This document shows, piece by piece, positions 4,182-41,271 of a DNA stretch of 64,000 nt. Within the stretch, counting starts at the first letter, position 1. The number at the start of each line of letters is the position of its first letter. A program made the position numbers and the translations under genes. The stretch is from a virus: the IMG/VR virus record IMGVR_UViG_3300045988_149625. One strand, 5' to 3'. The notes under the pieces are model-generated. The model searched no databases, had not been told where the DNA came from, and saw only the letters and a program-made list of their open reading frames with translations.

Positions 4182-4798
4182 TGACAGTAGGTATTAAACA
4201 AGACATTGCTCAATACTTAGCACAAAGCGAGATTGAAACGCGCCTATTAGTAGTTATTGAGTATGATAAAGATAACATATATAGATTTATAGCAGATGAA
4301 AGTTTAGAATCTTTTGAAATTTGTGGAAATACTTACTTATCTACACAAATTGAGAGAGGTAGTAGGCAGGAGAACGCAGATAACTCTATTGATAGTGTTT
4401 CTTTGACACTCTCTAATCATTGGCAAGAATGGGCAGCGATTGTAGCGAATCATGGCAACGAATTTCTGGGAAAAAGGTGTACGCTTTATGAGTGGTTTCC
4501 AGAATATCCAGAGGATGAGCCAGTACCTATGTATAGTGGCGTTTTAGATGAAATTAAAATGTCAGCCACAAGTTTTGAAATGGAGGTTGTTAGGGTATTA
4601 GGTGACTACGACCAAGAAGCACCTTTAATGACCTACGACCCGAACTGTCAGTTTATTTATAAGGATGCTAGATGTAAGGCAAAAAATACAATTTACTATT
4701 CATGTGGTAAAACGCTGAATGACTGCATACAGCGTGGTAACGTATTAAATTTCGGTGGGTATGTCGCCGTACCGAGAGAATATTTAGTTAAACATTAA
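4181..4798 (+). CDS. Minor tail protein L-like
   Basis: 205 aa. The C-terminus carries four cysteines (CQF..C..C..C), reminiscent of the Fe-S cluster of lambda gpL. Position is second after the tape measure protein. Confidence 0.45.
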   Translation: MTVGIKQDIAQYLAQSEIETRLLVVIEYDKDNIYRFIADESLESFEICGNTYLSTQIERGSRQENADNSIDSVSLTLSNHWQEWAAIVANHGNEFLGKRCTLYEWFPEYPEDEPVPMYSGVLDEIKMSATSFEMEVVRVLGDYDQEAPLMTYDPNCQFIYKDARCKAKNTIYYSCGKTLNDCIQRGNVLNFGGYVAVPREYLVKH

Positions 4799-4814
4799 AG
4801 GGGGGGGGGGCAGG

Positions 4815-5204
4815 ATGATTCCCAGAGAAGATGTAAAAGATTACATAGGATTACCTTTTGTACAGGAAAAGGACGGATACGCTTGGGGATGTCTTGCTCC
4901 TTTTTATCAAATTCACCCAGAATTTGAGCATATTAAAGCATATAGGTATCCTGTAAGTGAGGATGCTAATATGCTAAAGCATTTTAAAAGCCATTTTAAA
5001 GAAGTTGATTTAGAAGATGCCGTTTATGGGGATGTTTTGGTTATAAAATTACCTATGAATCAATGGCATTTAGCAGTGTATTTAGGGGACGGCAAGTTAA
5101 TGCACTGTACATTACATATAGACACAGAAATTACAAGACTTGAAAATTTTTCACAAGGCAGGATAAAGGGGGTATTTAGGTGTCAGGTGCAGCAGCAGCA
5201 TTAG
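4815..5204 (+). CDS. Tail-associated NlpC/P60-like peptidase (gpK-like)
   Basis: 129 aa with a Cys (GCLAPF) and downstream His (HLAVYLGDGKLMHC), consistent with an NlpC/P60 Cys-His catalytic pair. A poly-G tract lies just upstream at 4801-4811. Confidence 0.4.
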   Translation: MIPREDVKDYIGLPFVQEKDGYAWGCLAPFYQIHPEFEHIKAYRYPVSEDANMLKHFKSHFKEVDLEDAVYGDVLVIKLPMNQWHLAVYLGDGKLMHCTLHIDTEITRLENFSQGRIKGVFRCQVQQQH

Positions 5205-8191
5205 GTTGGGTAGGTATTGGTATTGCCCTTGTCAGTATGTTTGTAAGCCTTAGACAACAAAAGAAATTGTCTAAAAAAAAGGCTTCCTATACATACGGTG
5301 AGGGCGCACTGACTACCAACGTGAGCACCACAGACCCAGTACCTATTATATATGGTACTGTAAAAACTGCGGGAAACATGATTTATTCTAGATTAAGTAA
5401 TGATAAAAAAGTGCTCTATAAATTAGTATCTGTTGCGGATGGTAAGATTAAGGGCATAAGGGATTTGCAATTTGATGATTTAGATGCAAATAGCAGTAAG
5501 TATGAGGGCGTTAGCTATAACTATTACTATGGTGATGGCGTACAAGAAATAGATAGCCGTGTAATCGGAGATACACAAGAAGATAAAGCAATGCTAGTTG
5601 GCGGTTTAAAGTATTTGGCATACATAGCTTTACAGGCAAAGGCGAATGAAAATTTAAGCAGTAGTTTTAATGTTACTTGTTTAGTAGACGGTTCTATTGT
5701 AAAGATATATGAGAACGCAAACGATTTGACGCAGTATCGAGAGGAATGGACGGATAATCCTGCATGGTGTGTTTTAGATTTTATGACACGTTATAATGGA
5801 TGCGGAATGAGCCTTGATGAAATTGATGTTCAAAGTTTTATAGACGGAGCTAAATTCTTTAAAGAAAAGAATTATACATTAAATTTAGCTTTAGATGAAC
5901 AAAGAAGCCGTTTAGAGTGGATACAGTATATGTTAAACTGTTGCCGTTCACTGCTTATATATAGAGCAGGTAAATATAGTTTATTCGTGGAAAAGGCAGA
6001 TGAGGTAGTTCAATCATATACTCCGAATGACATACACGATTTGAGTATATGGTTCAGTCCTTTATCAGAAGTCCCAGATATTTATAGAATTACTTATATT
6101 GACCCTAAAAATGAGTGGGTAAAAGTAAATGCAGAAGCTTCTTTAAGCCCAGATAGCTATTTAAGAAAACAGCCAATGGTTGAAACTTTGGAGCTAATGG
6201 GTGTAACAACTTTTGACCAAGCAAGTAGATTAGCATGGTTCTACTTAAATCAAGCACTGACTTGTCAAACCTACATTTCTTTTAAAACAGATAGACGCGC
6301 TTTAAATAGAACTGTTGGCGATGTAATAGAGGTTACAGACTATGTAACAGAGTTTCAAAAGAAAAAATTTAGAATAATAAAAATTGAAGATGAGCAAAAT
6401 GAAAGTATAAAGCTTACATGTAGAGAGTACAACGAATCTATTTATAGTGAGCAACGTGGAGCGAGTGACCCTGTAATAAATGTTACAGAACTCACTGACC
6501 CGCAACAAACGCCGCCAGAAATAGTATATGTAGGAAATGAGCAAGACTATTATATACTACCAGATAAAACGGTAGTAAGTAATATAATGTTAGATGTAAT
6601 TTATACAGATTGGACTTATAATAAGAGTTTCAATGTTTCGTACCGTAAGAAGGATTCAGATAAGTGGCTTTTTGGTGGAACATTTGATGATGGTACTTAC
6701 AGGGCTGTTATAGAGAATATGGAAATATACGAAACCTACATTTTCAGATTTCAGAATATGAGTAAGTACGGCAAATTTTCAGCATATACTTATTCCCCAG
6801 AGATTTACATTACAGGTAAAAATGTAGCTCCTAATATGCCTTCTAATTTTCACGGTGAAGAGGTGGTAGGAGGTTTTAAACTTTATTGGGACGCTGGTGA
6901 AAAGGATGTAGATTATTATTTGTTATATTTAGGTTCTGTATCAGAAGAAGCTAAAATAGCACAAGTATATGGAACATCTTATTACTATCCTGCAGATGTT
7001 GGTGAATATACTTTTTATTTAGTAGCTGTTGATACAGCAGGTAATCGTTCCACTCCTGCAAGACTACTTTTAGAAATTTTATGCCCCTCAGACGTAAACG
7101 GCTTTGACTGTGTACAGAATGAACGCAACATAGAGTTTCATTGGAATTTAGTGGAAGGAGCTTCTTACTATGTACTTAAAGAGGGTGAGAACTGGGAATA
7201 TGGTAATACCTTAGCAACAAGTTCTGGACATTTCTTTAGTTACCCATATGCACAAGCAACAAGCACTACTTTTTGGATGAAAGCGTATACTGAATATGGC
7301 GTGCCTAGTGTAAACCCTGCATACTGTCAATTAAGTGTAGCATCTATACCTAATAGGAACATGATTTTAGAATATGATGCAGTAGAAGATGGTTGGAGTG
7401 GTAAGAAATATAACATGCACGTAAATGCAGGTGGTATACAATTAGATGCAGGCAAGGTTTATGGGGACTATATATATCCTATGGAGTTAGACCAAGAGTA
7501 TTGCGCAAGAAACTGGACAGAGAAAACTATCAAGCCAGTAAACGCGGAGTTAGAGCTTATGTGGAAGGATGCTCATTTTACATGGGCGAGTGCGAACGCT
7601 AAACGAAGAACTTGGTTTCCATTAGGCATAGATGATATATACAATTCATGGACGGAAATTGCAATATATAATGAAGCAAGTAAAGAGGATATAGTCGAAA
7701 GAATGTCATTGAATGAAACACTTGTTTCAGATAGTGGTAAAAAGCCTGTAGGAAATGTTGGTACACCCACATATGGTGCAGGAAGATTTGAAAAAGGTCT
7801 TGTGTTAGATGGAAAGTGCCGTCCAAAATGGAAAAATTTGCCCATTGATGATGCTTTCTCATTCAGTTTTAATCTTTACGTGCCTTTTGACAGTGTAAAT
7901 AATTACTCGATTCTTACTTTAAGGAATGATTTAGGTGATTATTTATGGCTTCATTATAGAGAAGATGATGATATGTTTGTATGTACCTTTTCAGATGGTA
8001 GAGAGTATGAGTTAAAAGATTTTTCTGGAAAGGGCGATTATCTACATTTTATAATTTCACAAGGCGCAGGATATTTTACATTTGTTATATATGACGTAGG
8101 TTATGATTCCTATGTTATAAATAGAAAGAAAATTTCTACAATGAAGCGATACACGCAGGTAGCTTTGTACGGTGATTTCAATAGGGAATAG
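5180..8191 (+). CDS. Tail tip / host-specificity protein (gpJ-like)
   Basis: 1003 aa, the largest structural ORF after the M/L/K-like genes. It has an N-terminal hydrophobic segment and a beta-rich, FN3-like repeat composition. Confidence 0.5.
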   Translation: MSGAAAALGWVGIGIALVSMFVSLRQQKKLSKKKASYTYGEGALTTNVSTTDPVPIIYGTVKTAGNMIYSRLSNDKKVLYKLVSVADGKIKGIRDLQFDDLDANSSKYEGVSYNYYYGDGVQEIDSRVIGDTQEDKAMLVGGLKYLAYIALQAKANENLSSSFNVTCLVDGSIVKIYENANDLTQYREEWTDNPAWCVLDFMTRYNGCGMSLDEIDVQSFIDGAKFFKEKNYTLNLALDEQRSRLEWIQYMLNCCRSLLIYRAGKYSLFVEKADEVVQSYTPNDIHDLSIWFSPLSEVPDIYRITYIDPKNEWVKVNAEASLSPDSYLRKQPMVETLELMGVTTFDQASRLAWFYLNQALTCQTYISFKTDRRALNRTVGDVIEVTDYVTEFQKKKFRIIKIEDEQNESIKLTCREYNESIYSEQRGASDPVINVTELTDPQQTPPEIVYVGNEQDYYILPDKTVVSNIMLDVIYTDWTYNKSFNVSYRKKDSDKWLFGGTFDDGTYRAVIENMEIYETYIFRFQNMSKYGKFSAYTYSPEIYITGKNVAPNMPSNFHGEEVVGGFKLYWDAGEKDVDYYLLYLGSVSEEAKIAQVYGTSYYYPADVGEYTFYLVAVDTAGNRSTPARLLLEILCPSDVNGFDCVQNERNIEFHWNLVEGASYYVLKEGENWEYGNTLATSSGHFFSYPYAQATSTTFWMKAYTEYGVPSVNPAYCQLSVASIPNRNMILEYDAVEDGWSGKKYNMHVNAGGIQLDAGKVYGDYIYPMELDQEYCARNWTEKTIKPVNAELELMWKDAHFTWASANAKRRTWFPLGIDDIYNSWTEIAIYNEASKEDIVERMSLNETLVSDSGKKPVGNVGTPTYGAGRFEKGLVLDGKCRPKWKNLPIDDAFSFSFNLYVPFDSVNNYSILTLRNDLGDYLWLHYREDDDMFVCTFSDGREYELKDFSGKGDYLHFIISQGAGYFTFVIYDVGYDSYVINRKKISTMKRYTQVALYGDFNRE

Positions 8192-8202
8192 GAGAGGATT
8201 AA

Positions 8203-8649
8203 ATGAATACAGAAATGTCAGTTGTTGTTACAGGAATACTGTATGACGAGAATAATAATATTAAACAAAAGTTTGTAAAGCATAATTTGATTACAAGTGT
8301 AGGTTTTGATTTTGTAAGTAATTGCTTGGGTTCAACAACAAGACCAAAACCTATTAGTCAAATTGGTGTAGGAACTAATAATACTGCCCCCGCTCTAGGG
8401 GATACAAACTTGAAAGCACTTAAACTTAAAAAGGCTTGTACCTACACTCATACAGCAGGAACTACTTCCCTTGTATTCCAGACAGTTTTTGGTGCTGGGG
8501 AGGCAACGGGCGCTTTGGTGGAAGCGGGTATTTTTACAGGGGATGGTATTTTATTTGATAGAGTTGTATACCCAGTAATTAATAAAGAAGATGTAGATAC
8601 TTATGCAATGACTTTTGAAATTATTTTGAAGGAAGTATCAGTAGTATGA
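8203..8649 (+). CDS. Tail or baseplate structural protein
   Basis: 148-aa ORF with a 5' GGAG RBS, in the tail module. Confidence 0.3.
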   Translation: MNTEMSVVVTGILYDENNNIKQKFVKHNLITSVGFDFVSNCLGSTTRPKPISQIGVGTNNTAPALGDTNLKALKLKKACTYTHTAGTTSLVFQTVFGAGEATGALVEAGIFTGDGILFDRVVYPVINKEDVDTYAMTFEIILKEVSVV

Positions 8650-9386
8650 GTTTTACGATTAGAGAGGAAATTCGTGGCATAAAATTAAAAGAAGTCGCAT
8701 TTCCTATCAGCCATTTTAAAGGGAAACGCTTAAAAGATTTTCGAGGAACAGCTTACATTGCAGACTGGAAAGATTTACTAAGCTTCGACCTAGATGCTAC
8801 AACTGTAAATGCTTATTCTAGAAAATTTAGTACAGCATTGGGGATACAAGAGGCACATAATAAGAAAACTATAAAGCATATTAAAGAGATATTTGGAATT
8901 GGTGTATTAAAAATAAATAATGCACAACAAGTATTAAGTGATTTACGCTTCTATGATAAGGTTCTAAATGAAACAAATTTTGATGAAACATTTACACCTT
9001 TTGGTTATAGTAAGTGGAAGAAAATGATTACAGGCGATTATATATATCAAAAAGCATTATGTAAATATGTAATGCAAGCTAGTCTTAATGCAGATAGACC
9101 TAATGCAAGGGCGTATACGCATAAAGTAGATGTGCCAGACCTTTTGGCTCAAGGTACGGTAGAATTAACAGTGAGTAATCAACCACGGGAGGTACACTTT
9201 CCTAAGGATAGGACTTTCCATATTGTACCAGAAATGAATATATCTATTAAGAGTTACAGTGGCACAGGTGCAACACCTTTAGTGTTGGCTTACAATGTTA
9301 CTACAAAAGGTTTTATGGTGTCTATGAAAAACGAAGATGGCGGCTATGTTGAGGGGACAATAACTTATGCAGCCCGCGGATATTGA
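8646..9386 (+). CDS. Tail structural protein
   Basis: 246-aa ORF translationally coupled to the upstream ORF (ATGA overlap). Confidence 0.3.
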   Translation: MSFTIREEIRGIKLKEVAFPISHFKGKRLKDFRGTAYIADWKDLLSFDLDATTVNAYSRKFSTALGIQEAHNKKTIKHIKEIFGIGVLKINNAQQVLSDLRFYDKVLNETNFDETFTPFGYSKWKKMITGDYIYQKALCKYVMQASLNADRPNARAYTHKVDVPDLLAQGTVELTVSNQPREVHFPKDRTFHIVPEMNISIKSYSGTGATPLVLAYNVTTKGFMVSMKNEDGGYVEGTITYAARGY

Positions 9387-9395
9387 GGTGAGATA

Positions 9396-10001
9396 ATGCA
9401 GAGATTAAGAAGAATAGAAGAAACTGAAACACTTGCAAACTCCTTAGACCCTATAAATAAGAATTTTGAAAGTGTACAATCACAACATAGTGGTACAAGT
9501 TTCCCCCAAGATAATTTAGTTTTGGGACAACCTTGTTTTAGAACAGATACAATGAGTCTTTATATCCTATCTAATGTGGAGTATAACTTATGGATAAAGG
9601 TAGCAGATTTAACATTAACACTTGTTAATAAGGAGTATGTGGATACATTCCATATCCCTCTTAGCAGGGTGGATGATATAATAGATGCTGCTACAAATAA
9701 GATTAAAATGAGCCTTATGTATACAGGCACACAAAATGGACAATTAGTAATGGTAGGAAATAATAATAAGATAGCAACAAGCCTTATTGATACAGGGGTT
9801 AAGGCAGGACAGGTTGTGATGGTAAATGCAGATGGTAAAATACCTAATGGTATTTTAAATATAGGTTATGGTAGGGAAGAGATACCTATATTGAATGATA
9901 AAGCACTTATTCCAGATACCATTTTACCGAGTAATTTAGCGCGTTTTAATGAGAGCGGACAAATAGTATTTCCTAATGGTACGAAAATGTGGGTGAAATA
10001 G
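9396..10001 (+). CDS. Tail fibre / structural protein
   Basis: 201-aa ORF with a GAGG RBS. Confidence 0.3.
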   Translation: MQRLRRIEETETLANSLDPINKNFESVQSQHSGTSFPQDNLVLGQPCFRTDTMSLYILSNVEYNLWIKVADLTLTLVNKEYVDTFHIPLSRVDDIIDAATNKIKMSLMYTGTQNGQLVMVGNNNKIATSLIDTGVKAGQVVMVNADGKIPNGILNIGYGREEIPILNDKALIPDTILPSNLARFNESGQIVFPNGTKMWVK

Positions 10002-10002
10002 T

Positions 10003-10806
10003 ATGGGTGTAACAGAGCATGTTTTAAACATACAAAGTAGTAATAATAAAAAAGTAGTTCCTTTATATGATACACCTACTTGTAGCTATACAGGAAGGTC
10101 TTTACCAATTAAATTAGCTAATGGTTCAACTGTGTATGCACCTCTAGGTGTTACAGATGATTTGTATGGAACACAGCTTTGGGTAGAAATTGATGGAGCG
10201 TCTTATAGAGTGGTTGAGCAAAGTGTGCAAGGTATTCAAGGTGTAAACTTTGATAAGACTGTAAAAATAGAATTTAGTGGTAGCGGTGAGCGCACAGCTA
10301 AATATGATACTTTTTATTTTGTAGCACCAAGAAGAACCAAGTTTCATTATAAAAGTATGGTTAATTACGGACAAACTGGTTGGGGATACAGCTCTGATAG
10401 GTGGCAACGTAGTGATATATGGATAAACTTAGATGGAAATCTACTTGTTAAGAAAACTTTTAGACGCAGTGCAGGCATTAATTGGAAAACTCTATATGAT
10501 GGGGACATTGAATTAGATGCAGGAACACATCGAATGGAACTTTGGCTTTTGGGGCAAGGCTCTAGTAAAGATAGTCATTTAACTGTTTGTTATGCTTGGA
10601 ACAATGATTTGTTAATGTCTGGACAACAATTTGTCCAATATTCAAGTCCAGGTACGTATGACTTCACAGTTCCTAAGGGTGTGGAAAGCATTACCATCGT
10701 GACTGTTGGTGGTGGCGGTGGTGGAGCAGGGTATGGATACACCCCCCAAGAAGATAGTGGTAGCGGCCCCAGTCAAGGTGAAGGTAGTGGAGGCGAAGGA
10801 GCATGA
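10003..10806 (+). CDS. Glycine-rich tail fibre protein
   Basis: 267 aa. The C-terminus reads VTVGGGGGGAGYGY...GSGGEGA. Confidence 0.4.
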   Translation: MGVTEHVLNIQSSNNKKVVPLYDTPTCSYTGRSLPIKLANGSTVYAPLGVTDDLYGTQLWVEIDGASYRVVEQSVQGIQGVNFDKTVKIEFSGSGERTAKYDTFYFVAPRRTKFHYKSMVNYGQTGWGYSSDRWQRSDIWINLDGNLLVKKTFRRSAGINWKTLYDGDIELDAGTHRMELWLLGQGSSKDSHLTVCYAWNNDLLMSGQQFVQYSSPGTYDFTVPKGVESITIVTVGGGGGGAGYGYTPQEDSGSGPSQGEGSGGEGA

Positions 10807-11285
10807 GTAGTTATCCTTATACACAAGTTATTGTAGATGCTAAAGGCACAGATGGTGGAAATTCTAAGGCTTCTTTAAATGGAGCAGATATAATTCTTGC
10901 AACTGGGGGCAGTGGTGCAAAATATAAAAGAACTCGTACCCATGTTAATTGGCACAGCTCTACTGAGTCCGAAGAAAAGCAGGTAGGTAGGGGTGGTACA
11001 CCAAATGGCATAGATGGCACTTATTCAGTATCTGGCACAAAGGGGTATGATATTCGTCCAGAGGTTACTAGAGGTTCTTATGGTAGCGGGGGAGGTTGTT
11101 CAAATACTAATACAGTTGTATATCCTGTATCTGGGGGCAGTGGTGGTATTAATATTGTCACCATTCCTGTTAAGGAAGGGGATAGATTACAAATCACTGT
11201 TGGAAGCGCGGGTGCAGGTGGTGGAATTGGTTTAGCAGGAAATGCAGGAGCGGTAGCATTATGGTATTACAAATTGGGAAACTAA
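10803..11285 (+). CDS. Glycine-rich tail fibre protein
   Basis: 160 aa with GGSG/GAGGG tracts. Coupled to the upstream ORF by an ATGA overlap. Confidence 0.4.
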   Translation: MSSYPYTQVIVDAKGTDGGNSKASLNGADIILATGGSGAKYKRTRTHVNWHSSTESEEKQVGRGGTPNGIDGTYSVSGTKGYDIRPEVTRGSYGSGGGCSNTNTVVYPVSGGSGGINIVTIPVKEGDRLQITVGSAGAGGGIGLAGNAGAVALWYYKLGN

Positions 11286-12484
11286 TAGATAATATATTAG
11301 TGGCAAAATTTATAACAAATAATACATTAAAAGAGTTTAAAGATTTAGTTGGGGAAGGAGATTATGTGGATATTACAGGGGTCGACATTCAAGAGGGTGA
11401 CAAATTTGTTAATGGGGATGCTATTCATTGTGAGGGCGATTCATTATCCAAGGAAGGTGTAAAAGCACTTTATCTGATGCTAGGCAGTGCGTGTAATATG
11501 TCTTGCAGACATTGTACACAAACTCCTATTAAAGGTAATGTTGCTTTTCCTACTACTGAGTTAAGTAAGGATGTACTAGATTTTATAGTAAATTGGGATA
11601 AAAATGGCGGTGGAAGGTTATATTTTTGGGGCGGTGAACCTTTACTTTATTGGAATACAATAAAGAAACTTATAGAAGAGTTTGAAAAAATGGGAATGAG
11701 AAATACTTCTTATCGCATTTTCACCAATGGTCTATTACTTTCAAATTCCATTGTAGACTTTTGTAACAAACATAATATATGGGTAATTATGAGTTATGAT
11801 GCACCTAACCCCTTAGCTGCAAGAAACGCCATGCCGTCAGAGAGAAATATAGAAGCTTTCTTGTTGGCAGAAAAAAGAACAGTAAATGGTGTATACAATG
11901 CCTTAAACTGTGATATGGTAGCTGCTTTTAAATACTTGGAGTCAAAATTTCCTAATACTGAGGTAACTCTAGGGTTTATAAATGTATTATGGGATATACC
12001 AAAAGACTTATACGCTTTTGGAAAAGGCGAAGTAAGAAAGGCGGTAAAAGATTTATTTGAATATTATAAAGAAACAAGGGATTCAAATGTACACAGGTGG
12101 TTTGAAACTAAACTTAGAAGAGGGAATTACTTTTCCATTGAAGAATTTATGCTTTCCCCATTTCCTCCCTGTGCACCTGGGCGTATCTCTTTATCTATAG
12201 ATTTTGCAGGTAATATAATAAGATGCCACAATGACGATAAAGTGGTTGCAAATATTAAAGATGATTATTCAGATATATTAAAAGCACATGAAATGGAGTG
12301 GCTAAAGTTATTGCCAAGAAATTGTGCAGAATGTGAATGTCTACCTTTGTGCAGGTCAATTTGTCCAATAGCCTATAAGAAAGAAAACAAAGAAGAATTT
12401 GTACAATGTGATTATATAAGGGAGTTTTTTAGCGCGGTGCAGGAATGTGCCGATGATTTTTGGAGAATGGAAGGTGAGATGTAA
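11261..12484 (+). CDS. Radical SAM enzyme with C-terminal SPASM-like Cys-rich domain
   Basis: CNMSCRHC is a Cx3Cx2C motif. The GGEPLL motif is present. The C-terminus has CAECECLPLCRSIC plus additional cysteines. The true start may be an internal Met just before the motif. Confidence 0.75.
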   Translation: MVLQIGKLIDNILVAKFITNNTLKEFKDLVGEGDYVDITGVDIQEGDKFVNGDAIHCEGDSLSKEGVKALYLMLGSACNMSCRHCTQTPIKGNVAFPTTELSKDVLDFIVNWDKNGGGRLYFWGGEPLLYWNTIKKLIEEFEKMGMRNTSYRIFTNGLLLSNSIVDFCNKHNIWVIMSYDAPNPLAARNAMPSERNIEAFLLAEKRTVNGVYNALNCDMVAAFKYLESKFPNTEVTLGFINVLWDIPKDLYAFGKGEVRKAVKDLFEYYKETRDSNVHRWFETKLRRGNYFSIEEFMLSPFPPCAPGRISLSIDFAGNIIRCHNDDKVVANIKDDYSDILKAHEMEWLKLLPRNCAECECLPLCRSICPIAYKKENKEEFVQCDYIREFFSAVQECADDFWRMEGEM

Positions 12485-14419
12485 ATGGCAAGCTTTCATA
12501 ACTGGACAGGTGATGAATTAATTGATACACAAGTCCCACAGTTTTTAAATGAAGATAATGCAGCAACACAGGAGAAATTAGACACTAAATTTAATAAATC
12601 CTTAGATATAGCAGAAGCCTCAGACTTAAACAATTTTAAGGATGAGGGGTTCTACTGCTGTAATTCTAATTCTCGTGCTGAAACTATTTTAAATTGTCCT
12701 ACTAATTATGCTTTCGGTTTAATGGTATGGGGTAAAGGCGAAATAGTCTATCAAGAAGTGCGCGAATTTAACAGAGGCTCTAACCAAGATTACAATAACT
12801 GTTGGAGAAGAAGTTATTCTGGGGGCGGACAAGGTGTGTGGTCTAACTGGCAGAAAGTGGCTTATGCAGCTACTACTTTAGCAGAATACGGAATAACAGA
12901 CGGTATGGGCAAGAACGCCACAAACAGTGTGGGTGTGACAGATATTATTAAAAGAAGTATTAATACGTCGTACTTGCGTTTAACAGGTGGCAATACATTT
13001 GATAAAAGTGCAACTCTTCAACTCTGCGGAGGTACTTATGCAACAAACGCAGGACAGTTTTTATTAAAAGCAGCAGATTCAGCACACTCAGCAACTCTTT
13101 CAGGTAATCCTTCTGGGCTACTTAAATGGAATGATAAAAATATAGTACGTTCAGTAAATAATTCTGTTGCAGATGAACATGGTAATGTAACTTTACTGTT
13201 CCCCGACTCAGATGTAACGCAGGAAGGCGCGGGGTACTGGAAGCCTAATGAATCAGTACAAGAAGGGGATATACGTTATGTGTATGGTAGAGGAAACACA
13301 GGTGTTGTTTTAAAATGTGTGAAAGCAGGAATAACAGGAGCAGAATTACCAGATTTAGAGGCTGCTTCAAATGCTGTGCAATTAGTAACAGAAACTACTA
13401 CTGAGGTAAAACCTTTTGATATATTGGATTATGTATCACAAGTACCAGAATATTACACACGCCCTAGTTTGTATACAGTTTCAAAAAAATCTATAACTAT
13501 ACCTAAGGGGTTACGTGTAAGAATTGGTGATAAAGGTTATGAGAGTGTTAGTACAACTACATTAAGCACTACATCTTTGGGAAGTTTGGCAGCAAAAGAT
13601 GTTTATATATATGCTTGTGCTCCTATTACTTTATCTACTGAGCCAATATTTGTACTTTCATTAAATAGTACAGTACCTAGTGGGTATACCGCAGAAAACA
13701 GTCGCAAGATTGGCGGTTTTCATTGCTTATGTGCAGATGTTGGTACAATAAGTGGACATACTTTAAGTGGTTATGTAGCAGGTGACATACTTCCTGCTTC
13801 TGCATGGGATTTAATTCATCGTCCACGATGTTCCCCCGAAGCAATGGTGTATTGTGATACGGTGGACTTTTGGGTCGATATATATTTGGATAGTTGGGAT
13901 GGTAACAAATTAGTATCTGTATACAAAGGTGTTACAGCAGACGGAACTTCCACTAAAAAGTTTCATGGTGAGCTTTTTGTAGATGAGCTTGCAAAATTGA
14001 ATAAAAGACTACCTCCAAGAAGAGTATTTCAAGCAATAATGAAAGGCTCAAATGAACGCACCAATGTTAAAGGTTCGAAAGACGTAAATACTACTGGTGG
14101 TAATGTAGATACAGCAGGTCGAAGAATGATAAGTAATTATGGTTGTGAAGATGGCTGCGGTTTCTTGTGGCAATGGTCTGATGAACTAGGTTTTGCAGGT
14201 GGTAGTGCATGGACAGATTCAGTATATAATTCAAGTGTCGATTCTGAAAGAATTGGACAAACTTATGGAACTTTGTATAGAGCTGCGCTGGGCGGTTGCT
14301 GGGTTCACGGCGGTTCTTGTGGTTCGCGGTCGGTGTTTTGCAGCCATTCCTCGGCTCTTGTCAGTGCTTATTTTGGCGGTCGCGGCGCTTGCGAGCCGAA
14401 GGTCGCAAAGTTCTATTAG
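12485..14419 (+). CDS. DGR target protein: tail fibre / receptor-binding protein with C-terminal variable region
   Basis: 644 aa. The last ~40 codons (nt 14276-14394) are the VR copy of the downstream TR. The C-terminus GGCWVHGG...YFGGRGAC is typical of DGR C-type-lectin-fold variable proteins. Confidence 0.85.
   Translation: MASFHNWTGDELIDTQVPQFLNEDNAATQEKLDTKFNKSLDIAEASDLNNFKDEGFYCCNSNSRAETILNCPTNYAFGLMVWGKGEIVYQEVREFNRGSNQDYNNCWRRSYSGGGQGVWSNWQKVAYAATTLAEYGITDGMGKNATNSVGVTDIIKRSINTSYLRLTGGNTFDKSATLQLCGGTYATNAGQFLLKAADSAHSATLSGNPSGLLKWNDKNIVRSVNNSVADEHGNVTLLFPDSDVTQEGAGYWKPNESVQEGDIRYVYGRGNTGVVLKCVKAGITGAELPDLEAASNAVQLVTETTTEVKPFDILDYVSQVPEYYTRPSLYTVSKKSITIPKGLRVRIGDKGYESVSTTTLSTTSLGSLAAKDVYIYACAPITLSTEPIFVLSLNSTVPSGYTAENSRKIGGFHCLCADVGTISGHTLSGYVAGDILPASAWDLIHRPRCSPEAMVYCDTVDFWVDIYLDSWDGNKLVSVYKGVTADGTSTKKFHGELFVDELAKLNKRLPPRRVFQAIMKGSNERTNVKGSKDVNTTGGNVDTAGRRMISNYGCEDGCGFLWQWSDELGFAGGSAWTDSVYNSSVDSERIGQTYGTLYRAALGGCWVHGGSCGSRSVFCSHSSALVSAYFGGRGACEPKVAKFY
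14276..14394 (+). repeat. DGR variable region (VR)
   Basis: 119 bp, collinear with TR at 14492-14610. All 23 mismatches in the aligned 116 bp fall at TR adenines. The 3' 26 bp (ggcggtcgcggcgcttgcga...) are identical to TR and GC-rich, like an IMH element. Confidence 0.9.
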
Positions 14420-14423
14420 AACT
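14409..14423 (+). promoter_or_regulatory. Hairpin immediately downstream of VR (agttcta t tagaact)
   Basis: Perfect 7-bp inverted repeat 14 nt after the end of VR homology, spanning the target stop codon. It is analogous to the DGR target-recognition hairpin. Confidence 0.4.
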
Positions 14424-14491
14424 AGGTATACGGCTACATGAAGTTGTTAAGGAACACGAAGTAGTCTTGAATATACTGGGTTGTGGTTGTT

Positions 14492-14610
14492 AAAAGAGCT
14501 AAACTAGGCGGTAACTGGGATAACAGCAGTTCTTGTAGTTCGCAGTCAGTGAATTGCAACAATTCCTCAGCTAATGTCAATGCTAATTATGGCGGTCGCG
14601 GCGCTTGCGA
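14492..14610 (+). repeat. DGR template region (TR)
   Basis: Adenine-rich (AAC/AAT codons) invariant copy of VR, located between the target gene and the RT. The ORF-track call 14483..14695 across this region is an artefact of TR copying coding sequence. Confidence 0.9.
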
Positions 14611-14865
14611 TACGGAGAGAGCTATTCCTTCGGCTGAACCACAATCCATTCTAGCAGAGAAATACTGTATAGAAAAACACACAACAGGAGTATAGAAGGG
14701 CTAGTAGTGTAAACGAACGTCATTCTATAAAACTCCGTATCTTTAAATAAAGGAGAAATAAACTTGAAAAGAATTGGGAATTTATGAACTAAAATTATAG
14801 ATAAAGAAAATATTAAGGAGAGTATTTTAAGCGCTGCAAAACATAAGAAAAAGCGCCCTGCGGTA

Positions 14866-16158
14866 ATGAAGGTACTCAATAATATAGACGAATATGTAGA
14901 AAAGATTCACAAATTGTTAGTAAACAAGGAGTATAAAGTTTCGGAATATTATATAAAAGCAATTTATGAGCCTAAGCTAAGGCTTATTTACATATTACCC
15001 TTTTATCCAGATAATATAATATTTCACTGCATAATGAGGGTATTAGAGCCTATATGGGACAGTAGGTTTATTTATGATACTTATTCATGCAGGAAGGGTA
15101 AGGGGCAACATAAAGGAATGTTAAAGAGCACTATATACGTAAAGAATTACAAATACTGCTTAAAATGTGATATAAGTCAGTTTTACCCAAGCCTTAATCA
15201 TAGAATACTAAAGGAAAGTTTCCGTTGGAAAATCAAAGATAAGGACGTATTGGAGCTACTTGACTTAATAGTAGATAGTGTTTCTGTGCGGGAAAGGAAT
15301 CTAGATTTTTTAAAGTGCTGCAAGGCAAGTGATAAACATATGATGGAACAGAAGCTTCAAACATTAAAAGAAGAGTTCCCAGAAGGAGATTTCGGTGTGC
15401 CTATTGGTAATTATCCTTCACAATGGTTCGGAAACCTTTATATGAACCCTTTAGATAACCTTATTAAGTACTGTTTCCATGCAAAAGCATATGTAAGATA
15501 CTGCGACGATTTTGTTGTTTACAGTAATGATAAAAAGTGGTTACATAGTGTAGCTGCGGAGATAGAGAACTTTTGTAAGGAAAGATTAAAATTAAAGATG
15601 AGTAAGTGTCGGGTATTTCCTACGAAGTGTGGAGTAGATTTCTTAGGGTATAAAGCATTTCCCAGTGGTAAGATTCTTTTGCGTAAAAGGACAGCAAAAA
15701 GAGTCCATAAACAAATAAAAGCATTATGGAAAGAGCTATCTTATGGGAACTATGAACAAATGCTTTCTAAAGTGGGAAGCAGAATGGGGTATTTAAGGTA
15801 CGCTAAAAGTTATAATTTTAGATTACAAATAAAGATTAAAGAGTTGGAAAGGGAACTAAAAAGGAGGATTAGTATGGTAGGTTATCCAAAAAATTTAAGC
15901 ACAAAAGAAGATTATGAGTACGTGAGAACACATTTCCCTAAAAGTGATTGGCAGAAAGACTTTGAAAGTCTTTTACCTCGCAAGGAATGGTTCTTCATTG
16001 AAGAAACTAAGGTTAATAAAAAAGAAGATGCTACTCATAAAACAGAACCCTCTGACGATGAAGGGGTATTCTATCGTTATGAATTGAGGGGGGTAAGTAA
16101 GGCAGCAGAAATTGGATATACGGTAGAAGAAGTAGAGAAGATTCTAAGGAGTGAATAA
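14866..16158 (+). CDS. DGR reverse transcriptase
   Basis: YCDDFVVY is the YxDD motif. IGNYPSQWFGN is the DGR-specific GxxxSQ motif. The N-terminal RT-like sequence (..ENIKESILSAAKHKKKRPAV) continues in frame upstream to 14788 without an ATG. Confidence 0.9.
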   Translation: MKVLNNIDEYVEKIHKLLVNKEYKVSEYYIKAIYEPKLRLIYILPFYPDNIIFHCIMRVLEPIWDSRFIYDTYSCRKGKGQHKGMLKSTIYVKNYKYCLKCDISQFYPSLNHRILKESFRWKIKDKDVLELLDLIVDSVSVRERNLDFLKCCKASDKHMMEQKLQTLKEEFPEGDFGVPIGNYPSQWFGNLYMNPLDNLIKYCFHAKAYVRYCDDFVVYSNDKKWLHSVAAEIENFCKERLKLKMSKCRVFPTKCGVDFLGYKAFPSGKILLRKRTAKRVHKQIKALWKELSYGNYEQMLSKVGSRMGYLRYAKSYNFRLQIKIKELERELKRRISMVGYPKNLSTKEDYEYVRTHFPKSDWQKDFESLLPRKEWFFIEETKVNKKEDATHKTEPSDDEGVFYRYELRGVSKAAEIGYTVEEVEKILRSE

Positions 16159-16160
16159 TA

Positions 16161-17168
16161 ATGGTAGTAGATAATACAGTACAGTGGTTACAGCTTAATT
16201 TAAAAGAAACAGGTTTGCCAGTAGGGTTTGAATACTTTACAATGAACCCAAACATACCCGCAGGAAGTTTGCCGCTACAAGGTGGTCTTTATAGCAGATT
16301 AGCATATTCAGACCTTTGGGAATGGGTACAGAAACAGACAGGATATTTAAAGGCTGAGTCAGAGTGGCAGGAACTTGCGGTCAGTAATAGTGGAAATGTG
16401 CCGTTTTACAGTAGCGGTGATGGTAGCACTACATTTAGAGTTCCTGCGCTGAAATGCTGGGTGCGGGGTGCTAGTAGCATTAGTGAGGTTGGTGGCTATT
16501 TGACTGCTGGATTGCCGAATATTACAGGAAGTATGGGACTAGCTGGTGCTCCTATATCAAATGCTAATAATAGAAACTTATATCCAAGCATTCTAAATGG
16601 TGTGTTTGAGATACAAGAAGGGCAAGAAGAACATTGGGCGGGTGAGCATAAGGCAAATACTTTTTCAAAAGATGCGATTATATTTAACGCTTTTCTTTCT
16701 AATCCCATCTACGGTGCATCCGATACTGTACAACCACCATCCATCGTAGGCTTATGGTGTGTAAAGGCTTATGGCACTGTTACAAATGTTGGTAGCACGG
16801 ATGTGGCTAATTTAGCACAAGGACTAACACAAACTGAAACACGTATAAGTGCATTGGAAACAAACAAGGTTGACAAGGCTGGTAATGCATGGGTGGTAGA
16901 ATCTTACCGCAACGGCACTGAATGGTATAGAGTATGGTCAGATGGTTGGGTAGAACAAGGTGGATATTTTGAAAAGAAAAGAGACACGGCTTTAACTGTT
17001 ACATTTTTGAAGCCTTACGTAGATAATGAATATACGTTTGCTTGTATGCTAGCTAGAGAAAATGGTTCTACACCAAAACTAACCACAAAGACTACAACAG
17101 GTTTTTCTATGTACACTGCCTCATGGGACTATGATATGTATTGGCGCACAGAAGGTAAGGGGGCTTAA
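16161..17168 (+). CDS. Tail fibre protein
   Basis: 335-aa Gly/Ser/Thr-rich ORF immediately after the RT. No VR-like copy is detectable in it. Confidence 0.4.
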   Translation: MVVDNTVQWLQLNLKETGLPVGFEYFTMNPNIPAGSLPLQGGLYSRLAYSDLWEWVQKQTGYLKAESEWQELAVSNSGNVPFYSSGDGSTTFRVPALKCWVRGASSISEVGGYLTAGLPNITGSMGLAGAPISNANNRNLYPSILNGVFEIQEGQEEHWAGEHKANTFSKDAIIFNAFLSNPIYGASDTVQPPSIVGLWCVKAYGTVTNVGSTDVANLAQGLTQTETRISALETNKVDKAGNAWVVESYRNGTEWYRVWSDGWVEQGGYFEKKRDTALTVTFLKPYVDNEYTFACMLARENGSTPKLTTKTTTGFSMYTASWDYDMYWRTEGKGA

Positions 17169-17174
17169 TTTATT

Positions 17175-17654
17175 ATGTTAGGCACAAAAATCTATAAAAC
17201 TGATATGAGCAATTACACTGATTGTGCTATTTGGTGTAATCAAAACAAAGCAACTATTGAGGATAGGGGCACTTATTACGAAGTGGTAACTTTACCACTC
17301 CCGACGCTGCAAGAAATTAAGGTTGCCAAAATCGCAGAGCTTAAAGCCGAGAGGGATGCAAAAGAGGTTGAGCCGATTACCTACAACGGCAACAGCTATG
17401 ATTACGATGACAAGGCACGTGACCGCATTAATGCAGCTATTGTTGCCCTGTCTGTACAAGGCACTGGTGCTGACTTAATGTGGACTACCGCTGACAACAA
17501 AGAAGTCCCTGTGACTGCCGACGATTTACGTATGGTAATCGCTGCTGTGGCGGTACGTAGCAATGCTTTGCATACTGCCTACCGTATAGCGAAAGAAAAA
17601 GTTGAAGCAGCGCAGAATAAAGAAGAAGTTGAAGCTATAATATTAAATGTGTAA
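17175..17654 (+). CDS. Tail fibre assembly / chaperone-like protein
   Basis: 159-aa ORF following the fibre gene. Assignment is by position only. Confidence 0.3.
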   Translation: MLGTKIYKTDMSNYTDCAIWCNQNKATIEDRGTYYEVVTLPLPTLQEIKVAKIAELKAERDAKEVEPITYNGNSYDYDDKARDRINAAIVALSVQGTGADLMWTTADNKEVPVTADDLRMVIAAVAVRSNALHTAYRIAKEKVEAAQNKEEVEAIILNV

Positions 17655-17672
17655 TATTGAGAGGGTGGACTA

Positions 17673-17963
17673 ATGGATGGAAGAAATTTTGCAAATAGAT
17701 TAAATAAAATGTCAAAGAATGTACTTAAACCTTTAATACCTGCACTTGGTTTACACAAGCGGGTTGAAAGGGTATTATATTTGAGGTACATTGAAGAGCA
17801 AAGTATTTATGATATAGCAGAGGATGCAGGAATGTCCTTTGATTCTCTTAATAATTATCTTAGTTTTGCAAGACATGAAATGCTTTCTACAATGCAACGA
17901 GATTTTGAGATATTACCAGATGATATTAAAAAGTTGATTAACATTGTATTATCAGACTGTTAA
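17673..17963 (+). CDS. Sigma-70 region-4-like HTH protein (putative late transcription regulator)
   Basis: RVERVLYLRYIEEQSIYDIAEDAGMS resembles the sigma region 4 helix-turn-helix. 96 aa. Confidence 0.35.
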   Translation: MDGRNFANRLNKMSKNVLKPLIPALGLHKRVERVLYLRYIEEQSIYDIAEDAGMSFDSLNNYLSFARHEMLSTMQRDFEILPDDIKKLINIVLSDC

Positions 17964-18028
17964 AAGTTAGTTATTCACCCTTTAAAATATATGCTATAAT
18001 TAAAATGTAAGTTGAGGAGGGGTGTGAA

Positions 18029-41063: not shown

Positions 41064-41271
41064 ATCTAATTCGGAGAAGAAAAATTCTGTTCCGCAGATT
41101 AAAATTGCAGCAAGAAGTGTTGAAAAGACTAAAGGTGGATTTTTAAGTATTAAGCAGGGAAGAACAGGCGACACAAATAACTTACAGACTAATCCATATT
41201 ATAGATTTATGAATAGAACTTCTTGGAAAACTAAGAATAAAAAAGGCATTACACCTTGGGGGCGTATTTAA
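41047..41271 (+). CDS. Small basic protein
   Basis: 74-aa Lys/Arg-rich ORF. Confidence 0.25.
   Translation: MKLANKSNSEKKNSVPQIKIAARSVEKTKGGFLSIKQGRTGDTNNLQTNPYYRFMNRTSWKTKNKKGITPWGRI

Follow-up and report, generated by a model that had tools for sequence, protein, structure and literature searches.

The locus considered here raises the question of what a radical SAM/SPASM enzyme does among the tail-fibre genes of a gut phage, and on which molecule it acts. The window, i.e., the whole analysed stretch of 64,000 nucleotides (IMG/VR record IMGVR_UViG_3300045988_149625), has been the subject of a preliminary description, in which such an enzyme was placed between glycine-rich fibre proteins and a DGR target, and it was proposed that a neighbouring fibre protein is modified, for example, by thioether crosslinks or formylglycine. 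The features on which the analysis draws are the following.

10003..10806, plus strand: Gly-rich ORF-A (267 aa), protein of the fibre module, candidate substrate
10645..10767, plus strand: N-terminal piece of Gly_rich_2 in ORF-A, residues 215-255 (PF21722 positions 2-38 of 226), GTYDFTVPKGVESITIVTVGGGGGGAG
10777..10803, plus strand: conserved C-terminal tail G-E-G-S-G-G-E-G-A of ORF-A with the stop, residues 259-267, the proposed modification site
10786-10788, plus strand: Ser262 codon in the ORF-A tail, aligned with Cys in other clades
10803..11285, plus strand: ORF-B, 160 aa, 21% Gly, with an ATGA overlap with ORF-A
11261..12484, plus strand: radical SAM/SPASM enzyme (407 aa), candidate maturase
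11261..11425, plus strand: N-terminal extension of the enzyme, residues 1-55, a small predicted domain, clade-specific
11492..11515, plus strand: CNMSCRHC (C78-x3-C82-x2-C85), ligands of the SAM-binding [4Fe-4S] cluster
12170..12409, plus strand: SPASM region of the enzyme, with C304, C322, C355, C358, C364, C368 and C383, G317 and the near-invariant H323-N324
12485-14419: Mtd-type DGR target, PF21916 match
41256-43166: queuine tRNA-ribosyltransferase-like gene, elsewhere on the same phage

Organization of the Locus

The flanking of the enzyme gene by the two Gly-rich ORFs and by the DGR target was borne out by the ORF calls and by the PF21916 match. The A-B-rSAM block is situated inside a co-directional, overlapping late structural operon, where the ATGA overlap of ORF-A with ORF-B and the 25-nt overlap of ORF-B with the rSAM gene point to translational coupling of all three genes; in the relatives, the rSAM start is found 1-4 nt away from the stop codon of the tail-bearing ORF. 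The scan of the block for promoters and terminators gave nothing clearly exceeding the shuffled expectation. Among the deposited phages, no match to positions 8000-18000 was obtained by megablast, and tblastn returned only relatives of at most 25% identity.

Class of the Enzyme

For the radical SAM superfamily, the CxxxCxxC motif, a core of the partial TIM-barrel kind and a score exceeding the Pfam gathering cutoff were demanded. The radical SAM core is indicated by the Pfam matches to PF04055 Radical_SAM (37.2 bits, cutoff 29.5) and Fer4_12 (25.2 bits, cutoff 22). For the SPASM domain, the demands were a score exceeding the curated cutoff together with the C-terminal seven-Cys pattern Cx9-15Gx4C, gap, Cx2Cx5Cx3C, gap, C. 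Residues 304-378 matched the NCBIfam model TIGR04085, which the preliminary description had recommended for comparison, with 31.5 bits (cutoff 27), and the signature C304-x12-G317-x4-C322, C355-x2-C358-x5-C364-x3-C368, C383 was kept in the alignments of 18 and 59 members; judged by this cysteine pattern, the domain is a full SPASM domain and not a partial 'twitch' one. C78, C82 and C85, as well as the SPASM cysteines, are invariant across 59 sequences, which argues that the enzyme is under selection, and the GGEP motif (G124-P127) is conserved among its relatives.

The AlphaFold2 model of the enzyme has a mean pLDDT of 93.2, with a core of alternating strands and helices of pLDDT >90. Its best PDB matches by Foldseek are all SPASM maturases, namely anSME, CteB, ChlB, TigE and SuiB, with anSME 4K37 (E 6e-14) on top by a small margin, while the closest by sequence in the PDB profile search are TigE 8VPO (1.3e-32) and CteB 5WGG (1e-28). 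The statistical tie of anSME, CteB, ChlB and TigE in these comparisons confirms the class and does not permit the chemistry to be assigned. The best NCBIfam matches are peptide or protein maturases throughout, PapB being aligned at full length (residues 67-371). Thus, with the motif, PF04055, TIGR04085 and the PDB matches in agreement, the proposed assignment to the radical SAM/SPASM enzymes of the peptide/protein-maturase kind was upheld.

It might be supposed that a radical SAM enzyme with a housekeeping or auxiliary task (for example, QueE, NrdG or a viperin-like protein) has come into the tail module by chance, the more so as a queuine tRNA-ribosyltransferase-like gene is present on the same phage and the prokaryotic viperin model gave a partial N-terminal match (50 bits, cutoff 180). 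However, that match is confined to the generic SAM-binding core at residues 76-186, the SPASM domain is full, neither QueE nor NrdG occurs among the best 25 of 60 matched NCBIfam families or in the PDB hits, and the gene is consistently found in tail modules beside a tail-bearing ORF. The QueE or NrdG identity was therefore rejected, and the supposition as a whole is effectively refuted; homology to these enzymes, the lack of an auxiliary-cluster domain and absence from related tail modules had been named in advance as arguments against the maturase proposal, and the reverse was found for each.

The N-terminal extension before the rSAM core, to which attention had been drawn earlier as a possible domain for substrate recognition, proved to be real: it is conserved in P0013 and P0014 (60-63% identical relatives), and its residues 1-55 are predicted by AlphaFold2 to be folded (pLDDT about 91), followed by a linker of low confidence (56-66). 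The predicted layout beta-beta-alpha-beta-beta-beta is unlike that of the PqqD-like RRE, and no PqqD/RRE match to the enzyme was found in Pfam. By BLAST against all ORFs of the fetched loci, the extension is limited to the window, L001, L002, L007, L008, L167, L168 and L169, which share the gene order A-B-rSAM, and it is absent from relatives of about 55% identity or less.

Comparison with the Named Maturase Families

The comparison with the anSME and sactisynthase families, also recommended at the outset, left the enzyme far under their cutoffs. Membership of the PapB family was defined by a score of at least 340 bits and a substrate with Cys-x3-Asp/Glu motifs; that of the SCIFF maturases by a score of at least 425, an N-terminal RRE and an adjacent precursor with six Cys in 45; and that of anSME by a score of at least 349, the motif C/S-x-P/A-x-R in a sulfatase and eight auxiliary-cluster Cys ligands. 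The enzyme reached 67.3 bits with NF047865 (PapB), 64.4 bits with TIGR03974 (SCIFF maturase, in the N-terminal core only) and 42.3 bits with TIGR03942 (anSME), and belongs to none of the three. No SCIFF-like peptide was found among the ORFs near the enzyme gene and no sulfatase among the ORFs scanned, and the anSME recognition motif is absent from the ORF-A tail. The QhpD model of NCBIfam matched the enzyme with E 1.9e-13.

In the core and SPASM architecture, the enzyme is similar to CteB/SCIFF maturases and TigE, which carry an N-terminal RRE and use short leader-containing peptides (Cys-rich for CteB, Val-rich for TigE), whereas the family described here is mostly without any N-terminal domain, and the extension in the window has another order of secondary structure. 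It would be akin to anSME as a SPASM enzyme without RRE acting on a full-size protein. The anSME chemistry is the SPASM chemistry known to accept Cys or Ser as natural alternatives at the target, which mirrors the Cys-type and Ser-type tails described below. In anSME, eight cysteines fully ligate both auxiliary clusters, and in CteB one site is open; in contrast to anSME, seven SPASM cysteines are conserved here (59 sequences).

The Conserved C-Terminal Tail of ORF-A

ORF-A is made up of an N-terminal structural domain of ~205 aa, the Gly_rich_2 piece and the conserved tail; its profile matches are phrog_4474 and phrog_863 tail, and a word-indexed search with ORF-A returned two clusters only. 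The tail has the form GEGSGGEG(A/N)-stop here and CGGGEA-stop or GCGGEGG-stop in the 36-40% identical relatives, and within these homologous proteins the Ser of the window aligns with the Cys of the relatives. The Ser codons vary (AGT, AGC, TCC), as do the Gly codons; the Ser codon crosses codon families, which shows that the tail is conserved at the protein level. At the same time, the GGN/GAR codons of the tail hold Shine-Dalgarno-like GGAGG/GAAGG sequences just upstream of the next start, so that the conservation could to some extent reflect the nucleotide sequence. The Shine-Dalgarno function alone was rejected as the reason for the conservation because of the switch of codon family and because the tail precedes different downstream genes. 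The string GEGSGGEG is of low complexity and is also found elsewhere without an rSAM gene.

Co-Occurrence of the Enzyme and the Tail

The enzyme and the tail strictly co-occur. A tail-bearing, same-strand ORF of the fibre module lies just upstream of the enzyme in 29/29 testable loci of the first set (those with an enzyme of at least 36% identity being counted), and likewise in 5/5 genome loci and in L167-L170 from metagenomes, L169 retaining the order A-tail/B/rSAM. At least five scaffolds, of 267, 62-69, 441, 593 and 171-201 aa, carry the tail, and they are spread over three or more tail architectures; in L011, L025, L031, L088 and L170, the scaffold is one other than Gly_rich_2. In the reverse test, an rSAM-SPASM gene followed each of the GEGSGGEG tails that are truly C-terminal and have sufficient sequence behind them (7/7) and none of the internal occurrences (0/46). 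The Ser and the Cys are equivalent in position between the clades, and the tail type varies with the enzyme: enzymes of at least 47% identity accompany Ser-type tails and those of 36-40% identity Cys-type tails, on scaffolds that are themselves homologous (47% identity, E 2e-45). The tail, ORF-B and the enzyme are also gained and lost jointly; thus, in the syntenic phage L174, the half-domain with the tail, ORF-B and the enzyme are all missing together, and the ORF-A homolog, P0098, ends at 208 aa.

The placing of the enzyme in the tail-fibre module was corroborated by the gene-neighbourhood comparison, in which the same setting recurs in several unrelated phage types; IMG/VR counts 480 relatives. 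Prophage copies of the enzyme are found in strict anaerobes, hosts that fit an oxygen-labile enzyme. One of the loci, L089, is a prophage of the cultured Succiniclasticum ruminis DSM 9236, where the tail is on the 441-aa protein. Moreover, in 34/42 distant loci, (CxC)n-tailed fibre proteins are found with one to three rSAM genes, and this sister set, which is much larger, suggests that the phenomenon is widespread in phages.

As the enzyme keeps company with a tail-bearing fibre protein, the phages probably modify their own host-recognition fibres. The enzyme would then, with somewhat better than even confidence, be a dedicated maturase for the free C-terminal tail of ORF-A of the phage's own distal fibre, although co-occurrence by itself is no proof of an enzyme-substrate relation. 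The specific substrate feature would be the conserved C-terminal tail on the split Gly-rich domain, which does not figure in the preliminary reading; of the neighbours which that reading had named as possible substrates, a neighbouring Gly-rich fibre ORF is the most likely, whereas the DGR target, absent from most relatives, is not retained.

It is rather unlikely that the enzyme acts elsewhere, be it on a different residue of ORF-A or ORF-B, on a further fibre protein, on a molecule of the host surface or on a small molecule, with the tail as the remnant of a flexible acidic linker or a coupling element. Such a role of the tail would accord with the Shine-Dalgarno-like sequences in its codons, while the absence of RRE from most family members and the position of the enzyme gene, which in many relatives is exactly at the split point of Gly_rich_2, as an insertion might be, could be read likewise. 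However, the tail is equally conserved before ORF-B in the window and before rSAM in the relatives, is not confined to the Gly_rich_2 scaffolds, and shows both the switch of Ser codon family and a Cys/Ser alternation that follows the enzyme clade; the invariance of the catalytic and SPASM cysteines further bespeaks an enzyme under selection.

The DGR and Its Target

The VR/TR pair of the DGR is 123 nt long, with 24/26 mismatches at template adenines. The modification of the DGR variable protein, e.g., by crosslinking or oxidizing residues in or near its hypervariable C-type-lectin tip, would be in keeping with the rSAM stop at 12484 abutting the target ATG at 12485, with the same gene order in L001 and with several Cys and Ser in the VR region. 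However, the enzyme occurs without any DGR in L003, L006, L009, L011, L014-L031, L087-L091 and L170, while the tail-bearing ORF is present in every testable locus; L007, whose enzyme is 95% identical, is devoid of the DGR cassette and has a non-DGR gene downstream, and L168 has another DGR target (DUF6273) and another RT. The DGR target as the partner, considered in the preliminary description, is therefore very improbable, and a DGR accessory component was rejected in view of no conserved co-occurrence with RT, TR and VR.

The Proposed Split of the Glycine-Rich Domain

The last ~50 residues of ORF-A appear to correspond to the first fifth of the Gly_rich_2 domain, with residues 215-255 scoring 14.6 bits against PF21722, i.e., below the cutoff of 24.3. 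The concatenated A' and B gave 16.1 bits (E 0.011), also below this gathering cutoff. In L003, the short ORF joined to the protein downstream of rSAM forms a continuous PF21722 match (positions 3-129, 40.9 bits), and in L006 the downstream partner scores 46.4 bits by itself (cutoff 24.3). The piece exists as a stand-alone ORF of 62-69 aa in L003, L006, L009, L014-L024, L087, L090 and L091. ORF-B may supply the remainder of the split Gly-rich domain: its hallmark motif VTIPVKEGDRLQITVGSAGAGG weakly matches the Gly_rich_2-type partners (hhalign E 0.004, probability 8%, a single strand motif), a similarity which by BLASTP and hhalign of the window ORF-B against the partners of the relatives is too weak to establish homology. 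The ORF-B family is narrow and consists of stand-alone proteins of 90-164 aa; by exhaustive phmmer, ORF-B has two or three true relatives, and none in which the gene is unsplit was found. No NCBIfam models were found for ORF-A, ORF-B, the short ORF or the Gly_rich_2 partner, and the single-sequence AlphaFold2 model of the A'+B chimera (pLDDT 36) was uninformative.

A programmed frameshift joining A and B was rejected, since ATGA/TAATG represents ordinary coupling and rSAM separates the halves in most relatives, and so was a split by sequencing error, since the same split is present in the independent assemblies L001, L002, L007, L008, L168 and L169. By the split, the tail would obtain its free C-terminus.

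The stand-alone form of the piece brings to mind a RiPP cassette carried as a moron, in which the short Gly-rich ORF or the ORF-A tail, instead of belonging to the virion, would give rise to a bioactive peptide that is set free, such as a bacteriocin or a signal. The 62-69-aa tail ORF is in many relatives located directly 5' of rSAM-SPASM, like a precursor/maturase pair, and the nearest named families are RiPP maturases. However, no protease, transporter or immunity gene lies alongside in the loci examined, the short ORF represents the N-terminal part of the structural Gly_rich_2, which is continued just after the enzyme gene, the window tail is joined to a tail-module protein of 205 aa having a syntenic homolog, the tail in other clades ends proteins of 171-593 aa, and the location is a co-directional, overlapping late structural operon; such a cassette is accordingly regarded as improbable.

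The glycine-rich adhesin domain of gp38 has been described as the receptor-binding tip of the phage fibre (e.g., PMC12032242). The likeness to the gp38 adhesins, with their polyglycine-rich motifs, and to Gly_rich_2 tips consists in the PF21722 matches of the ORF-A piece (below the cutoff) and of the relatives' partners and in the distal end of the fibre module, while, in distinction from the gp38-type tips, the domain here would be in two pieces, broken by the acidic Gly/Ser tail and a stop, and coupled to a radical SAM enzyme. In the literature, no report of enzymatic modification of gp38-type domains was found.

Possible Chemistry of the Tail Modification

In the preferred reading, with the ORF-A tail as the substrate, ORF-A would be made with a free, flexible C-terminal tail ending in GEGSGGEGA, and ORF-B and the radical SAM/SPASM enzyme would be translated from this same late operon, the genes of which are tightly coupled. 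SAM would be reductively cleaved, and the 5'-deoxyadenosyl radical would take a hydrogen from a tail residue, the likeliest targets being the C-beta of Ser262 or the carbon adjoining the Glu265 carboxylate. The auxiliary clusters would finish a two-electron oxidation to give a covalent change of the tail, either a small Ser-x-x-Glu ring or an aldehyde, and the modified ORF-A would assemble with ORF-B into the glycine-rich fibre-tip domain.

PapB forms a bond between Cys and the carboxylate-adjacent carbon of an Asp/Glu farther downstream, or between Cys and the C-terminal residue (PMC12373016), and QhpD makes the same link from Cys to the carboxylate neighbour within a full-size protein subunit (PMC8172795). 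Both are radical SAM/SPASM enzymes, PapB being the best full-length NCBIfam match, and their geometry is matched exactly by the C-G-G-(G)-E-x-stop tails of the 36-40% identical relatives; by analogy, a PapB/QhpD-like Cys-to-Glu thioether is likely in these Cys-type relatives. In contrast to PapB and QhpD, the window tail has Ser at the position that needs Cys, the substrate would be a phage fibre protein, with neither an RRE nor the logic of a leader peptide, and the candidate sites number one or two instead of three to six.

The thioether crosslinks envisaged at first, although they have the best precedent among the closest sequence relatives, are unlikely in this phage, because the conserved tail is without Cys, and the product must be Cys-independent; conserved Cys are absent from the partner ORFs as well, which leaves the thioether plausible for the Cys-type relatives only. 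For the Ser-type tail of the window, an ether or C-C ring and the conversion of Ser to formylglycine are both possible products, each with an equal and rather low chance, and another chemistry, such as epimerisation and the like, has a lower one. To our knowledge, there is no direct precedent on this motif for a SPASM enzyme that forms a Ser-based ring.

Implications for Phage Fibres

In the full-text literature, no description was found of radical-based enzymatic modification of phage structural proteins, and the words phage, viral and tail are absent from the 15,000-member compendium of RiPP radical SAM enzymes. As a general proposal, put forward tentatively and held with less than even confidence, phages of gut and rumen anaerobes may introduce covalent changes into their receptor-binding fibre proteins, at the free C-terminal tails, by means of dedicated radical SAM/SPASM enzymes, in a RiPP-like manner, with the whole structural protein as the 'leader'. 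The window would then represent a Cys-less, Ser-type branch, with a Ser-O-to-Glu ether ring or a virion-displayed formylglycine aldehyde, a new chemistry for the enzyme class on this motif, and the tip would be made as two polypeptides for the sake of a free C-terminus.

If the pairing of enzyme and tail is real, it would add a new layer to the ways in which phages build and stabilize the organelles of host recognition in anaerobic habitats that are reducing and rich in proteases, where disulfides cannot be relied upon. The natural matched pairs of enzyme and tail, Ser-type and Cys-type on homologous scaffolds, would make the chemistry directly testable and could be the source of a short, portable tag with which proteins are stapled or provided with an aldehyde by an enzyme. 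Attempts to predict the structure of such fibres or to express them heterologously, e.g., in host-range engineering, may be unsuccessful if the maturase and both half-domain genes are not expressed together.

The enzyme and its class

The open reading frame that the preliminary description assigned to a radical SAM/SPASM enzyme was recovered exactly at 11261-12484, and the assignment was borne out by the profile scores, with Radical_SAM at 37.2 bits against a cutoff of 29.5 (Pfam, where Fer4_12 was matched too) and the TIGR04085 SPASM domain, at residues 304-378, at 31.5 bits against the curated cutoff of 27 (NCBIfam). The motif C78-x3-C82-x2-C85 is invariant and the full seven-cysteine SPASM signature (C304-x12-G317-x4-C322, C355-x2-C358-x5-C364-x3-C368, C383) is kept in both alignments, with 18 and with 59 homologs. 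The AlphaFold2 model from the 59-sequence alignment has a mean pLDDT of 93.2, and its best fold matches in the PDB are all SPASM maturases (anSME, CteB, ChlB, TigE and SuiB; E 6e-14 to ~1e-8), while the profile search against PDB sequences gave TigE (8VPO, a cyclopropylglycine synthase; PMC10878394) at 1.3e-32, CteB at 1e-28 and anSME at 1e-16. No model of QueE or NrdG, named in the preliminary description as the housekeeping alternatives, is present among the NCBIfam matches listed. The best full-length NCBIfam match is PapB; because the scores lie far under the curated cutoffs of all named maturase families (PapB 67 against 340, SCIFF 64 against 425, anSME 42 against 349), the enzyme is, as judged from its sequence, a member of the class outside every described maturase family. 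The 96 homologous clusters in the protein database are all unnamed and all metagenomic. Two homologs of 669-677 aa (P0080 and P0084) consist of two rSAM/SPASM modules fused in tandem (CNLRCKHC..., CNFKCNYC...), the second module being the one related to the enzyme of the window.

Gene order in the fibre module

The genes of the fibre/tail region are all encoded on the + strand and overlap or abut, as follows.

4-3753, +, tape measure
Between the tape measure and the J-like fibre, +, DUF2460, tail assembly and minor tail genes
5180-8191, +, J-like central fibre (phrog_31, 8e-58)
Between the J-like fibre and ORF-A, +, three small ORFs
10003-10806, +, ORF-A, a fibre-module protein
10803-11285, +, ORF-B, a glycine-rich ORF
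11261-12484, +, radical SAM/SPASM enzyme, 407 aa
12485-14419, +, Mtd-type target of the diversity-generating cassette (DGR)
14866-16158, +, reverse transcriptase of the DGR, after the template repeat, with further fibre proteins downstream

ORF-A and ORF-B are joined by an ATGA overlap, ORF-B overlaps the enzyme gene by 25 nt, and the enzyme stop codon directly abuts the ATG of the DGR target. The DGR (12485-16158) is genuine, complete and of the Mtd type, its VR (14279-14401) and TR (14495-14617) being 123 nt long and 79% identical; 24 of their 26 mismatches lie at template adenines. A terminator-like hairpin (12435-12452, +; 7 pairs, then ATGATTTTTG) is located inside the 3' end of the enzyme gene, before the DGR target, and may be a chance occurrence, as 5.1 +/- 2.0 sites of this kind are expected in the region and 10 are present.

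Elsewhere in the window, all genuine-looking ORFs of at least 100 aa within 1-60000 are on the + strand, and the GC skew is strongly positive (0.17-0.29) up to ~60 kb, dropping then to about 0.04-0.07. The 719-aa RNA ligase at 43163-45322 (+), matched by phrog_968 at residues 1-280 and 561-702 and by a LAGLIDADG homing-endonuclease domain at 308-497, probably contains an intein. The 636-aa queuine tRNA-ribosyltransferase-like protein at 41256-43166 (+; phrog_887, E 1e-66) suggests that the phage has a pathway for 7-deazaguanine modification of DNA, unrelated to the SPASM enzyme.

The conserved partner of the enzyme

The placement of the enzyme in the tail module was upheld by the gene neighbourhoods of related and distant phages, which were compared over the range of enzyme divergence and in an additional 80 IMG/VR and 80 genome loci. 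The hypervariable DGR target, proposed as one possible partner, was rejected, since it is absent from most enzyme loci. No DGR was found beside the enzyme in the contractile-tail phages that encode Wedge1 and a sheath initiator (L003 and its relatives), in the P2-like prophages carrying it (L006, L170), or in the loci of the L011, L025, L031, L087 and L088 types. Even the locus with a 95% identical enzyme (L007) has a non-DGR gene downstream and no DGR, while another (L168, 63%) has a different, DUF6273-type target and another reverse transcriptase; close relatives can exchange the cassette.

An upstream same-strand ORF with a short conserved C-terminal tail was found in 29 of the 29 testable loci of the first set, in all five genome loci with at least 47% enzyme identity, and also in L167-L170. 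Near-identical loci, which are not independent events, contribute to these counts, yet no fewer than five scaffolds and three tail architectures are represented. The tail, GEGSGGEG(A/N) before the stop codon in the clade of the window (GEGSGGEGA in ORF-A) and in the L003 type, ends a 441-aa protein as EGSSGEGSGGEGSGGE in L011 and the Succiniclasticum ruminis prophage L089, a 593-aa protein as SQGEGSFSEGEGGGF in L088, and a 193-aa protein as GSGGEGSGGEGG in L170, whereas the clades of 36-40% identity end in SSCGSEGGCGGGEA (L025) and SGCGGEGG (L031). The codon for the invariant serine is AGT, AGC or TCC, and glycine codons vary freely, which indicates conservation at the protein level; some of it may be at the nucleotide level, because the tail codons hold Shine-Dalgarno-like GGAGG/GAAGG upstream of the next start. 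The Ser-type protein of L170 and the Cys-type protein of L025 are full-length homologs (47% identity, E 2e-45), and the serine of EGSGGEGG occupies the column of the second cysteine in the multiple alignment; therefore, enzyme clade and tail type co-vary. In the reverse scan of IMG/VR for DNA encoding GEGSGGEG, a low-complexity octapeptide not unique to this system, an rSAM-SPASM gene followed in 7 of the 7 genuine C-terminal cases with enough downstream sequence and in none of the 46 internal ones.

A glycine-rich domain encoded in two pieces

The ORF that bears the tail has just 62-69 aa in the L003, L006, L009, L014-L024, L087, L090 and L091 types (for example, MADKVDVVTSWSNAGTYTFTVPEGVTEITVEISGAGAGG...GEGSGGEGN and stop). 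Its stop codon and the start of the enzyme gene lie 1-4 nt apart, and the gene 3' of the enzyme opens with M(A)TIGYGERVTRxISVxPGTQYTxTIGAGGKGG. The short ORF covers positions ~3-40 of the Gly_rich_2 profile (Pfam), which the downstream protein enters at ~43 of 226; joined, they give a continuous match over 3-129 with 40.9 bits, compared with 34.4 when the second part is scored by itself.

In the window, this first piece is represented by the last ~50 residues of ORF-A (positions 2-38, 14.6 bits, under the cutoff), and the order is ORF-A with its half-domain, ORF-B, and the enzyme third. The same order, with a TAATG junction and a shorter, divergent ORF-B, is found in L169 (enzyme 60% identical). 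That ORF-B complements the half-domain of ORF-A is tentatively suggested by its 21% glycine, the hallmark strand motif VTIPVKEGDRLQITVGSAGAGG and the terminal GAVALWYY strand; its comparison with Gly_rich_2-type partners gave E 0.004 and 8% probability (hhalign), the concatenated ORF-A piece and ORF-B scored 16 bits (Pfam), their chimera had pLDDT 36 in a single-sequence model, and exhaustive phmmer yielded two or three stand-alone relatives of ORF-B.

A natural control is provided by L174, syntenic with the window in the tail module, where the ORF-A homolog P0098 (42% identity) stops at 208 aa without half-domain and tail, ORF-B and the enzyme are missing, and an ordinary fibre is the next gene; therefore, the half-domain with its tail, ORF-B and the enzyme are acquired or lost together.

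The N-terminal extension of the enzyme is, among the loci compared, confined to the clade with the order ORF-A, ORF-B, enzyme, and no similarity to anything else was found in them. In the AlphaFold2 model, the small domain formed by residues 1-55 has the order beta-beta-alpha-beta-beta-beta (pLDDT about 91), and a low-confidence linker connects it to the core. PqqD-like RREs have a three-strand, three-helix order, and such an element was rejected for the extension, as the order differs and no RRE model matched. Speculatively, the extension may make up for the lost adjacency between the enzyme gene and the tail.

Proposed chemistry

The modification of a neighbouring protein, as proposed in the preliminary description, thus stands for the enzyme class and for a fibre protein as target, with the tail of ORF-A the rather probable substrate on the neighbourhood evidence; it stands neither for the DGR target nor, in this phage, for thioether crosslinks. 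PapB joins a cysteine to the carbon beside the carboxylate of an Asp/Glu located C-terminal to it, even the C-terminal residue itself (PMC12373016), and QhpD makes such a join within a full-size protein subunit (PMC8172795). The Cys-type tails of the relatives (C-G-G-(G)-E-x-stop) share this substrate geometry; however, a thioether is unlikely in the phage of the window, because serine replaces the cysteine in its tail and no conserved cysteine was found in the ORF-A tail region or ORF-B. The enzyme would modify the free C-terminal tail of ORF-A, and the two most plausible products would be a Ser-x-x-Glu ring, by an ether or C-C bond, and formylglycine from an anSME-like oxidation of the serine. 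The SPASM enzyme anSME naturally accepts cysteine or serine at the target position. If the enzyme requires a free C-terminus, or at minimum a flexible end that is exposed, this would account for the two-piece encoding of the glycine-rich domain.

Wider distribution and significance

Enzyme relatives of 23-32% identity are also situated within fibre modules (IMG/VR loci L032-L085), and in 34 of 42 distant loci a same-strand ORF ends in (CxC)n...D/E, such as NCNCKCDCACSNNDEE before the stop codon; such ORFs make up 37 of 645 in the distant loci against 3 of 359 in the background set. These loci often contain two or three rSAM/SPASM genes, along with a conserved protein of 230-260 aa. The picture suggests a larger family, seemingly not yet described, in which Cys-tailed phage fibre proteins have maturases dedicated to them. 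Among cultured phages, distant relatives are encoded by Achromobacter phage JWF (gp030; L172, 3821-5185), between fibre genes and the endolysin, and by Ralstonia phage RSP15 (ORF045; L173, NC_030948, features at 1251-2123 and 3821-5161), two genes past the side tail fibre ORF048, which ends in NTNCQCGN. The hosts of JWF and RSP15 are aerobes, unlike those of the family of the window.

No description of an rSAM enzyme paired with phage fibre proteins was found in the full-text literature, a search mostly outside subscription journals, and a compendium of ~15,000 RiPP-associated rSAM proteins mentions neither phage, viral nor tail. The enzyme class is already known, whereas virion fibre proteins that carry a portable C-terminal tail would be a new class of substrate; the chemistry of the Ser-type branch is probably new as well. 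Close relatives of the enzyme were found as prophage copies in Segatella copri, Succiniclasticum ruminis DSM 9236, Phascolarctobacterium and Bacteroides, and of distant ones in Sutterellaceae, many of the MAG-based assignments being possibly mis-binned. The strictly anaerobic hosts of the prophage copies fit an oxygen-labile enzyme, and non-reducible crosslinks would be useful in anaerobic habitats.
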